Both the position numbers and the translations under genes were made by a program. A model generated the notes under the pieces. That model was not told where the DNA came from and ran no database searches. It worked only from the letters and a program-made list of their open reading frames with translations. A stretch of 25,477 nucleotides of DNA from a virus. Position 1 is the stretch's first letter, and each line of letters opens with the position of its first letter. The DNA lies in the UHGV virus genome UHGV-2038699; one strand, written 5' to 3'. This document shows positions 22,253 to 25,477 of this stretch, in pieces.

Positions 22253-22471
22253 ATGAGTGATGAATACAAACAGAAAATCGGCATTCCAGATGACCATACA
22301 CTGGAGCTTGTCTCTTCTAACTGGAAAGGAGCTCGAAAAGGTCAGGATACCGATGAATACCTTTACCGTGAGTTGGACGCTGCGGGAAATGTAGTGGCCA
22401 CTTATGAAATTAAAGATTCAACTTCTATATATCCACCATTCGGAAGATCTATCTCTTATAAGAAGGTCTAA
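22253..22471 (+). CDS. Hypothetical 72-aa protein, opposite strand to the late operon
   Basis: ATG with AAGGA RBS 7 nt upstream; start is only 22 bp from the divergent small-terminase start; hydrophilic, slightly acidic; no family recognised. Confidence 0.45.
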   Translation: MSDEYKQKIGIPDDHTLELVSSNWKGARKGQDTDEYLYRELDAAGNVVATYEIKDSTSIYPPFGRSISYKKV

Positions 22472-22962: not shown

Positions 22963-23499
22963 TTAATTAGTGAGCCCGGGGATTACGGTTTGCCCGTGCT
23001 GTTCAAGGCGTTCAATTCTCGCCAGTAGCTGAGGCTTCTTAATTTTTCCCCAGCGATTGAGCAGGCGGCCAGACATACTGGCGACATCCTTCTCTTTCAT
23101 ATACTCCAGCATTATGGCGTTGCGTTCTGCTTCATAACTTTCGCTGTACTTACGGAGTTCTGCTGACATCCAGTTAAAGGCATTTATATAGGCCTCTTTA
23201 ACAGCGTCGGCTTTTGCGCCATTAAATCCCATGACCAGCATAACGAAGCCACTAAAGTCCATGCGGTAGTAAATCTGTTTCTTGTCGAAAATCCCTAACT
23301 CATTGATTTTTTCGGCAACGCAAAAATGCGCTCTCCGGAAATCTTCAGAGCAATGACAATTTTTCAGCGCCCTCAATACGTCCGCATGACGCTTACCAAA
23401 TGCCTTTGCGATCTGGAAGGTGTCAGTTACCGGTTGACCTTCTGCTGCGGTAACTAACTGGCGAAAGTCAAAGTCATGATTCACAATTAATTCATTCAT
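22963..23499 (-). CDS. Rha-family phage regulatory protein
   Basis: N-terminal motif ...TDTFQIAKAFGKRHADVLRAL typical of the Rha domain; ATG at 23499 chosen (track ORF extends to 23568). Confidence 0.6.
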   Translation of the reverse strand: MNELIVNHDFDFRQLVTAAEGQPVTDTFQIAKAFGKRHADVLRALKNCHCSEDFRRAHFCVAEKINELGIFDKKQIYYRMDFSGFVMLVMGFNGAKADAVKEAYINAFNWMSAELRKYSESYEAERNAIMLEYMKEKDVASMSGRLLNRWGKIKKPQLLARIERLEQHGQTVIPGLTN

Positions 23500-23650
23500 G
23501 GCGTTACCTGCTACTTCGAAATGAACCTTTGCCGCACAGGAAACCAGCCCACCGAGGCTCGCCAGCACTAACTGGTATCCTCAAAGGCCCATTCCAAAGG
23601 GTCAGGTTCGGTGGTTATTGTGCGCTGCGGTGCGCGGTGAAATACCTATA

Positions 23651-23717: not shown

Positions 23718-24155
23718 TTATTTTAAGCACTGCGTCCTAATGTACTCCTGCAAGTAGTTAACCTGCGCGGTTATCCTGTCGATTCCACTTCGGAGACGGT
23801 AATAATTGAGTTCAGCATCTGCTGTAAGTCTTGGGCTTTCTCCATCGCCCATGCTGCTGGCTCCGGTCGTTGACTTTGCACAGGTGGCGGCGACTTGCAG
23901 GCGCTTACGCCCAGCAGAAACATCAGCACGGAGGCTTTCGATAGTCGCGTTAGCATCAGCAAGCTCCTTTGTATATCTGGCGTCGAGTTCTGCTACGTCA
24001 CGTTGACGCTTCTGCATGTCAGCGATGATGGATGCGGCCTTATCGCGCTGTTCTTTGTAGGCGATGGCGTTATCACGGTAATGATTAACAGCCCATAACA
24101 GGCAGACGATGATGCAGATAACCAGAGCGGAGATAATCGCGGTTACTCTGCTCAT
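23718..24155 (-). CDS. Rz: i-spanin Rz
   Basis: N-terminal TM anchor [19 protein letters not shown] and coiled-coil periplasmic domain; ATGA overlap with R; N-terminus close to lambda Rz as recalled. Confidence 0.85.
23771..23956 (-). CDS. Rz1: o-spanin Rz1 (lipoprotein, embedded in the +1 frame of Rz)
   Basis: ATG at 23956 with AAGGAG RBS; lipobox VSAC; proline-rich mature part; fully inside Rz in a different frame. Confidence 0.75.
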
Positions 24156-24628
24156 ACCTCAATCTCTCTGACCGTTCCGCCTGCTTCTTTGAATTTTGCA
24201 ATCAGGCTGTCAGCCTTATGCTCGAACTGACCATAACCAGCCCCCGGAAGTGAAGCCCAGATATTACTGCAACGGTCGATTGCCTGACGGATATCACCGC
24301 GATCAATCATCGGCAAAGCGCCACGCTCCTTAATCTGCTGCAGCGCAACAGCGTCCTGGCTTTTGGGAGAGAAGTCTTTCAGGCCAAGCTGCTTACGATA
24401 GGCATCCCACCAACGGGAAAGAAGCTGGTAACGTCCGGCTGCTGTTGATTTGAGTTTGGGGTTTAGCGTGACAAGTTTGCGAGGGTGATCTGAGTAATCA
24501 GTGAATAGCTCTCCGCCAACAATGACGTCATAACCATGATTTCTGGTTTTCTGACGTCCGTTATCAGTTCCCTCTGACCACGCCAGCATATCGAGGAACG
24601 CCTTACGTTGATTATTGATTTCCACCAT
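24152..24628 (-). CDS. R: Endolysin (lambda R-type lytic transglycosylase)
   Basis: 158 aa; [26 protein letters not shown]... is nearly the lambda R sequence as I recall it. Confidence 0.9.
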
Positions 24629-24935
24629 CTTCTACTCCGGCTTTTTTAGCAGCGAAGCGTTTGATAAGCGAACCAATCGAGTCAGTACCGATGTAGCCGA
24701 TGAACACGCTCGTTATATAAGCGAGATTGCTACTTAGTCCGGCGAAGTCGAGAAGGTCACGAATGAACCAGGCGATAATGGCGCACATCGTTGCGTCGAT
24801 TACTGTTTTTGTAAACGCACCGCCATTATATCTGCCGCGAAGGTACGCCATTGCAAACGCAAGGATTGCCCCGATGCCTTGTTCCTTTGCCGCGAGAATG
24901 GCGGCTAACAGGTCATGTTTTTCTGGCATCTTCAT
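24612..24935 (-). CDS. S: Class I holin (lambda S-type) with dual-start MKM motif
   Basis: 107 aa, three TM segments, begins [22 protein letters not shown] (lambda S107/S105 dual start); GGGGG RBS. Confidence 0.9.
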
Positions 24936-25177
24936 GTCTTACCCCCAATAAGGGGATTTGCTCTATTTAATTAGGAATAAGGTCGATTACTGATAGAACA
25001 AATCCAGGCTACTGTGTTTAGTAATCAGATTTGTTCGTGACCGATATGCACGGGCAAAACGGCAGGAGGTTGTTAGCGCGACCTCCTGTCACCCGCTTTC
25101 ACGAAGATCATGTGTAGAAGGCCGCAGCATAACTATCACTGATGAATTCAGGATAGCCAGTGGATACGGCTCAGTTA

Positions 25178-25253
25178 TGGTGCTGGTTAACGGACTTGAA
25201 CCGCTACCCATTCGCTTACAAGGCGACTGCTCTACCATTGGAGCTAAACCAGC
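25178..25253 (-). tRNA. tRNA gene, anticodon UGU (Thr) by manual folding
   Basis: 76 nt with encoded CCA; 7-bp perfect acceptor stem, D-loop with GG, T-loop TTCAAGT, anticodon loop CTTGTAA. Confidence 0.6.
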
Positions 25254-25258
25254 ATGTT

Positions 25259-25333
25259 TGGCGGGACAGCGTGGGCTCGAACCACGATAAGAAGGTTAAC
25301 AGCCTTCCGTAATGACCTTTATACGACTGACCC
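25259..25333 (-). tRNA. tRNA-like gene, anticodon GUU (Asn) by manual folding; possibly degenerate
   Basis: 75 nt with CCA; T-arm CGTGG-TTCGAGC-CCACG; anticodon arm GAAGG-CTGTTAA-CCTTC; one mismatch each in acceptor and D stems. Confidence 0.45.
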
Positions 25334-25379
25334 AAATAAAAAAAGCCACCGTTGCAACTTAAGAGTCACTAACGGCAGC
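25334..25379 (-). terminator. Intrinsic terminator (tR'-like) immediately downstream of the candidate late promoter
   Basis: On the minus transcript: GCUGCCGUU...AACGGUGGC stem followed by U7 (plus-strand A-run 25338-25344). Confidence 0.5.
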
Positions 25380-25389
25380 TTACCTTCTA

Positions 25390-25419
25390 ATTATGGCTAA
25401 ATGGATAATTGCATGTCAA
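25390..25419 (-). promoter_or_regulatory. Sigma70-type promoter (candidate late promoter pR'), -35 TTGACA / 18-nt spacer / -10 CATAAT
   Basis: On the minus strand, TTGACA (25419-25414) and CATAAT (25395-25390); sits upstream of the tRNAs and lysis genes, where lambdoid phages carry pR'. Confidence 0.5.
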
Positions 25420-25477
25420 GGCTTTTAACAGCAACATGCTTAACTTTCTCAACACGTTTACGCATTTTGAAAGCATT

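Follow-up and report, generated by a model that had tools for sequence, protein, structure and literature searches.

The window analysed here is the whole 25,477-nucleotide stretch of the virus genome UHGV-2038699. At its right end, read along the minus strand, lie the 3' end of a Q antiterminator gene, a sigma-70 promoter (pR') overlapping that coding end, a hairpin followed by a T-run (tR'), two tRNA genes, an untranslated leader and the first protein gene of a late operon, a holin/antiholin gene of the lambda family (Table 1). The segment 25334-25419, which an earlier sequence-only reading had described as a candidate late promoter with a terminator hairpin starting almost at +1, extends exactly from the -35 hexamer through the base preceding tRNA-Asn.

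Table 1. Features of the late regulatory region at the right end of the window, in the order in which the minus strand is read.
Feature	Coordinates	Strand	Basis or remark
Q antiterminator gene, 3' end	25397..25477	minus	last 26 codons NAFKMRKRVEKVKHVAVKSLDMQLSI; stop TAG 25399-25397; rest past window edge
pR' -35 hexamer TTGACA	25414..25419	minus	consensus match; inside Q coding sequence
Upstream Q-binding subsite AATTATCC (QBEu-equivalent, predicted)	25403..25410	minus	aligns with phage 21 QBEu ATTGAGCA; C25404 at -21
Downstream Q-binding subsite ATTTAGCC (QBEd-equivalent, predicted)	25395..25402	minus	aligns with phage 21 QBEd AATGAGCA; C25396 at -13
pR' -10 hexamer CATAAT	25390..25395	minus	consensus match; same position relative to TAAGCT as the annotated phage 21 -10 AACACT
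Transcription start +1 (inferred), G, 7 nt past the -10	25383..25383	minus	position
Sigma-dependent pause element (SDPE) TAAGCT, -10-like, +2 to +7	25377..25382	minus	identical to the annotated phage 21 SDPE
tR' intrinsic terminator, hairpin 25381-25343 and T7 25344-25338	25338..25381	minus	fold; identity to phage 21 tR'
tRNA-Asn (GTT)	25259..25333	minus	ARAGORN; Rfam RF00005, 53 bits
tRNA-Thr (TGT)	25178..25253	minus	ARAGORN and Rfam, 61.5 bits
Lambda-type untranslated leader upstream of holin S (~240 nt)	24936..25177	minus	aligns with lambda just upstream of S and with Sf6
Lambda-family holin/antiholin S107/S105, first late protein gene	24612..24935	minus	ORF list; homologous annotations in Sf6, Bas106 and E. 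coli 300081

A sigma-70 consensus scan of both strands gave TTGACA-18-CATAAT (minus strand, 25419-25390, spacer of 18 nt) a score of 11/12 and found no other site of at least 11/12 in the whole 25.5-kb window, in agreement with the promoter proposed by the sequence-only reading. In dinucleotide shuffles the chance expectation for such sites is 0.21 per window and 19% of the shuffles contain at least one, and the promoter match by itself is only moderately unusual. That the element is not a product of chance follows from its homology to the late leader of phage 21, which has been annotated and studied experimentally. Indeed, the window's promoter aligns hexamer for hexamer with the annotated phage 21 pR', its -35 falling on the annotated -35, and TTGACA is invariant in nine of nine aligned relatives; across the alignments and the loci survey described below it is unvaried in every relative, even where the adjacent codons differ. 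As in a phage 21-type cassette, this sigma-70 promoter lies at the 3' end of Q and overlaps it. The start of transcription would be at about G25383, the positional homologue of the annotated phage 21 start (an A just before TAAGCT).

The GC-rich hairpin and U7 claimed to follow within a few nucleotides were recovered by folding as 17 pairs with one bulged A, a CUUA loop and a G-C closing pair (G25379-C25345), followed by T7. The hairpin sets in at A25381, 9 nt past the -10 on the minus strand, and has a minimum free energy of -21.2 kcal/mol (z = -3.5), equalled in 1 of 200 shuffles. A consensus terminator scan of the window missed it since the bulged A breaks the simple stem rule, and folding was needed to find it. 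The hairpin and U7 are identical to 21tR' and form an intrinsic terminator that separates the pause site from the late genes, with a predicted terminated RNA of ~44-46 nt. The pause site itself is TAAGCT, a -10-like element in the initial transcribed region, which is also the start of the terminator 5' arm. A search of 24000-25477 against Rfam at a permissive threshold returned the two tRNAs only and assigned no family to the leader RNA.

Upstream of the terminator, translation of the Q codons in the window gives a peptide with no difference from the C-terminal residues of the 172-aa Q found in HK75 and in the E. coli prophage 300081. The 172-aa relatives hit Pfam PF06530, the Q21 family (E. 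coli 300081 Q at 90 bits against a cut-off of 26); the Pfam hits of the relatives' Q were PF06530 and DUF1133, and PF03589, the Q-lambda family, was absent from them. Furthermore, the near-identical Q protein of Sf6 (gp59) matches the Q21 structures 6JNX and 6P18 with E = 1e-92 and ~86% identity. By these family matches the Q of the cassette is assigned to Q21 (PF06530) and not to the lambda Q family. The sequence-only reading had expected a Q-like gene just right of the window and had suggested extending the sequence rightward to look for it. In the nearest prophage spanning the window's right end, Q, a ninI-like phosphatase and NinG are indeed found directly past that edge, and near-identical prophages carry the rest of Q there, but the last 26 codons and the stop lie inside the window. 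A PF06530 gene thus stands directly upstream of the late promoter, its remainder beyond the edge being presumed from relatives that are 98-99% identical.

The Q coding end overlaps both the -35 and a predicted Q-binding repeat. Two direct-repeat subsites of 8 bp lie in the promoter spacer, AATTATCC adjoining ATTTAGCC over 25410-25395, with C:G pairs at -21 and -13 as numbered from the inferred +1; the Q stop codon falls within the downstream subsite, which ends on the base that opens the -10. The cores are TTATCC and TTAGCC instead of TGAGCA, the core of the site read by Q21 itself, and in each subsite two of the six core positions depart from the phage 21 site, with an extra G-to-T change in the upstream one. 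This difference probably marks a subclass of the family with its own specificity and leaves membership of the family unaffected. Judged from sequence, the TTAGCC-type repeat would be bound by the cognate Sf6-type Q. In this Sf6-type class, as in loci L001, L005-L007 and L009, the Q ORF has 10 more codons than that of phage 21 (172 against 162 aa); the added stretch (25397-25426, minus strand, in the window) reads through the -35 and the upstream subsite and ends inside the downstream subsite. The same bases therefore serve as the Q C-terminus, as promoter and as Q's own binding site.

Matches to the final 578 bases of the window were obtained in 184 phage records, with Sf6, HK75, BTP1, ST64T and phage L at 97-99% identity; these five belong to the same subclass as the window and are 98-99% identical to it over the whole element. 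In the Sf6 record (AF547987, 98.9% identical) the same hexamers are annotated as P R', "nearly identical to phage 21 late promoter", and the same hairpin as t R'; the record also carries a qut site "by homology with phage 21" and, upstream, gene 59, "similar to phage 21 Q". The GenBank features of this Sf6 cassette coincide with the coordinates of the window's element, and the HK75 record (99.3% identical) has pR' and Tr' annotated on the same bases. Hexamers, terminator, tRNAs (missing from HK75) and the lambda-type S leader are common to the Sf6/HK75-type cassettes and the window, and the differences from Sf6 are an upstream subsite AATTAGCC with T6 there, compared to AATTATCC with T7 here.

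Phage 21 is more distant upstream of the start site and practically identical downstream of it. From TAAGCT (25382) through the hairpin, the T-run, tRNA-Asn and tRNA-Thr, a single base, in tRNA-Asn, separates the window from phage 21. The phage 21 record, which gives literature references, annotates in order the -35, the QBE (QBEu ATTGAGCA, QBEd AATGAGCA), the -10, the start site, the SDPE, the terminator, tRNA-Asn and tRNA-Thr; the window has the same order of Q gene, -35, direct-repeat QBE in the spacer, -10, SDPE at +2 to +7, terminator and the two tRNAs. In contrast, phage 21 has TGAGCA as QBE core where the window has TTATCC and TTAGCC, a 17-nt spacer and the -10 AACACT where the window has 18 nt and CATAAT, which is closer to consensus, and other bases between the -10 and the SDPE. 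The Q of the window's class is ~86% identical to Q21, both in PF06530, but carries the 10-residue C-terminal extension through the -35 and QBE and has R95 and N128 as base-contact residues instead of H95 and R128. The lysis genes differ as well, being of the lambda S/R/Rz type in the window and a pinholin with a SAR endolysin in phage 21. The lambdoid pR'/tR' arrangement requiring Q antitermination, put forward by the sequence-only reading, is thus supported by the annotations of Sf6, HK75 and phage 21 on the same or identical bases. In light of these results, the element is very probably the late-gene regulatory cassette of a lambdoid prophage with a phage 21-family Q antiterminator. Such a cassette is already known: the same annotation stands in GenBank records 98-99% identical to the window, and the downstream half is the same as in the phage 21 element, which has been characterised both by experiment and by structure.

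Variation of the cassette was followed in 240 Q21-family loci from IMG/VR together with GenBank records, with 248 loci for the Q/QBE pairing and 212 phage 21-type leaders. The cassette was always found behind a Q21-family gene in the 248 related loci, and its promoters fall into two classes (Table 2).

Table 2. The two promoter/Q classes among the surveyed loci.
Feature	Window/Sf6 type	Phage 21/Nil2/SE16 type
Q-binding repeat	TTAGCC or TTATCC	TGAGCA
-10 hexamer	CATAAT	AACACT, AATCAT or AATGAT
Spacer length	18 nt	17 nt
Q length	nearly always 172 aa, ORF through -35 into repeat	162 aa
Q residue 95	R	H or Y
Q residue 128	N (S once)	R

The downstream subsite ATTTAGCC is kept in all Sf6-type loci surveyed but one, L192, which has ATTTGGCC. 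In phage 21, Q residues 95 and 128 are among the four that read bases in the major groove (Shi 2019); the other contacts, R113, A124 and R127, are kept in the window's class. The residues at 95 and 128 (H95R, R128N) pair with the repeat type without exception in the 248 loci, a pairing that does not amount to proof of co-evolution since the sites are only 100-200 bp apart and linkage alone could produce it. It is plausible from these sequences that the Sf6-type subclass is a separate specificity class. A stronger proposal, to which we give slightly less than an even chance, is that the Sf6-type Q, with R95, N128 and its 10-residue C-terminal extension, reads the TTAGCC-type repeat without cross-action with phage 21 Q (H95, R128, TGAGCA), in such a way that co-resident lambdoid prophages of the two classes would keep independent late switches although their pause elements and terminators are identical. 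Were the Q proteins of the Sf6 type and the phage 21 type truly orthogonal, they would form a natural non-cross-reacting antiterminator pair sharing one leader, useful for studies of how prophages avoid cross-induction and for synthetic circuits. Given that this is a textbook system with solved structures, a further copy teaches little and its value is mainly for annotation; the mildly new point is the Sf6-type Q/QBE subclass only.

Two transcribed leaders were found, each behind both promoter classes: the phage 21-type, which is the window's, and the HK629-type, which has TATGCT at +2 to +7 and a separate GCCCAC/GTGGGC terminator further downstream. The presence of both leaders behind both classes points to a recombination junction near +1. 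Mosaic junctions are seen at ~25383-25390 (L006, L121, L152 and other loci), where one promoter/Q module is joined to either leader and the reverse, and a second one past the T-run, where the sequence runs onward into the tRNAs or into GTTTGCACAACA. Among the 212 phage 21-type leaders, 179 are identical to the window from +2 to +39, and in TAAGCT the fifth base alone varies. Leader haplotypes with several substitutions on the 3' arm preserve the pairing, mostly by one-sided changes; compensatory changes were sought in the 212 leaders as support for the hairpin, but the leader varies too little for a proper test of covariation. The same terminator occurs with no tRNAs behind it in HK75 and in more than 70 IMG/VR loci, where the tail is GTTTGCACAACA or ATTTGCACAACA.

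The lambda pR'-qut-6S RNA-tR' region shares the logic of the window's cassette: the late promoter is constitutive, a sigma-dependent pause occurs close to it, the QBE lies between the -35 and the -10, an intrinsic terminator precedes the late genes and Q works by the nozzle mechanism. Moreover, S in the window and the leader immediately preceding it are homologous to lambda. However, the lambda Q family (PF03589) is unrelated to the family in which the window's Q falls, and Q-lambda requires NusA and a -35-like element. The lambda terminator does not overlap the pause element whereas the window's 5' arm contains it, and the terminated RNA of lambda (6S) is ~194 nt long compared to ~45 nt here.

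For the sequence features, the identity to phage 21 and Sf6 and the Q family of the relatives we rely on the present analysis; the pause, the QBE contacts and the nozzle are taken from the phage 21 literature. The cassette and its nozzle mechanism have been defined there (Yin 2019; Yin 2022), with Q21 structures 6JNX and 6P18-6P1C. One phage 21 Q protomer forms a ring in the RNA-exit channel; since only single-stranded RNA passes this ring, terminator hairpins cannot form. The three Q families share no sequence similarity. According to Shi 2019, two Q protomers bind a direct repeat, the QBE, which lies between the -35 and the -10; its C:G pairs at -21 and -13 are essential (the window keeps C at both), and sigma region 2 re-binds a -10-like element in the initial transcribed region, causing polymerase to pause, with the Q-engaged complex backtracked to +14. 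In the same work 21PR' followed by 21tR' was a working Q-dependent unit, 21Q with GreB raising 21tR' read-through ~10-fold.

Transposed to the window, host sigma-70 RNA polymerase would start constitutively at pR' (+1 at ~G25383) and sigma region 2 would re-bind TAAGCT (+2 to +7) on the non-template strand, producing a pause at an RNA of ~14-18 nt. Without Q, the 3' arm would then be transcribed and termination would occur in U7 at ~+40 to +46, yielding an RNA of ~45 nt and leaving the late genes silent. With Q present, two protomers would bind the direct repeat AATTATCC/ATTTAGCC (25410-25395) and dock onto the paused complex, one of them becoming a ring or nozzle on the RNA-exit channel through which the nascent RNA threads, so that no hairpins form. 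Polymerase would then pass tR' and go on through both tRNA genes and the late operon, which covers ~25 kb of the minus strand (lysis, terminase, head and tail). According to the nozzle model, Q has to load while the RNA is very short. Since the 5' arm doubles as pause and loading site, the short distance between promoter and hairpin would pose no problem, and Q would always get the chance to load first because termination becomes possible only ~30 nt past the pause, with the 3' arm still untranscribed at that point. On the phage 21 alignment this short distance is the normal phage 21 arrangement. The suggestion of the sequence-only reading that it may reflect a pause or qut-like element holds alongside the terminator, the 5' arm containing the SDPE. 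The ~25-kb late operon of the window is given a definite start by the cassette, which also accounts for a strong promoter standing beside a terminator.

Other readings of the same bases were considered. The Q stop lies only 16 nt upstream of the hairpin, a usual spot for the 3' terminator of an operon, and an 11/12 promoter match turns up somewhere in a fifth (19%) of the shuffled windows; the hairpin and T7 might then be a mere terminator of the early-right (nin-Q) operon and the hexamers in the Q end incidental. This we regard as extremely improbable, given that the hexamers align exactly with the annotated late promoter of phage 21, that TTGACA is invariant in the relatives and that 21PR'-21tR' works as a Q-dependent unit (Shi 2019). 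The hairpin surely also stops unmodified polymerases arriving from the Q gene, which is compatible with a Q-controlled late cassette and is no substitute for it. Likewise, tRNA-Asn starts only 4 nt past the T-run, and the BTP1 transcriptome paper, which makes no explicit start-site or short-RNA call for pR', names the two central tRNA genes as highly expressed features of the prophage; it could be argued from this that the promoter serves mainly the two tRNA genes and that the hairpin is their attenuator or processing structure. The many loci with this promoter and terminator and no tRNA genes, HK75 and the more than 70 from IMG/VR, argue against such a role, to which we attach almost no credence.

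The ~45-nt terminated RNA could instead be the functional product, a trans-acting small RNA in lysogens like StxS of Stx phages, with antitermination as a second role. StxS shows that by-products of pR'-tR' can be Hfq-dependent regulators, and the StxS paper notes short RNAs of this kind from phages 21, phi80, 82 and P22; both RNAs would be short, constitutive in lysogens and by-products of Q-controlled termination. A hairpin with a U-tail is a typical Hfq-binding 3' end, and the identity of most leaders from +2 to +39 is unusually high in spite of swapped promoter/Q modules. However, the conservation of the 5' arm is explained by the pause and loading signals at the DNA level, the same promoter can be followed by the HK629-type leader, in which the whole RNA is exchanged, with no apparent problem, and the leader RNA belongs to no Rfam family. 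The pR'-tR' interval that gives rise to StxS, furthermore, is 258 nt long, and processing leaves an Hfq-binding sRNA of 74 nt whose seed is defined, whereas in the window +3 to +45 is nearly all one hairpin, the only single-stranded parts being the loop of 4 nt and the 5'-terminal 2 nt; because almost the whole ~45-nt RNA is locked in this hairpin, it offers no obvious seed. A regulatory small RNA as the main product is for these reasons very unlikely, and the Q-dependent late cassette is retained as the explanation of the element.

Downstream of the cassette, tRNA-Asn is the first gene on the read-through transcript, and its position after the terminator is the same in phage 21, Sf6 and BTP1. 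It shows several non-canonical pairs against the Rfam tRNA model, and its T-arm has GAGCCC in the window where phage 21 and Sf6 have GAGTCC, a difference of one base. Given the many loci in which the tRNAs are missing, both tRNA genes are seen as optional cargo on the late transcript.

A second hairpin rich in GC (CAGGAGGT...ACCTCCTG, then CCGTTTTG; ~25093-25055, minus strand), with GTTTTG after the stem, lies in the leader that separates tRNA-Thr from the holin start. It folds weakly (z = -1.6), is common to Sf6 and could be a weak secondary terminator or an mRNA structure. It was considered as a displaced lambda tR' and rejected, as it aligns to lambda ~120-160 nt upstream of the S start, a position which, by the 6S RNA coordinates, we take to be well downstream of lambda tR'.

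The virion genes of the window resemble those of Citrobacter phage Omnitron, its best relative in INPHARED (~94% identity over 68% of the window), and of E. coli vB_EcoM-type prophages, and are unlike those of the P22-like phages that carry the same Q/pR'/tR' cassette, Sf6 among them. The regulatory cassette has therefore been exchanged between virion types. The main long downstream ORFs are all on the minus strand. A 72-aa ORF (22253-22471) runs on the plus strand, opposite to the late operon, and is flanked by the genes for the small terminase subunit and a Rha-family regulator (22963-23568, minus strand), both annotated after the homologous E. coli 300081 prophage; it could be a moron or accessory gene within the late region.
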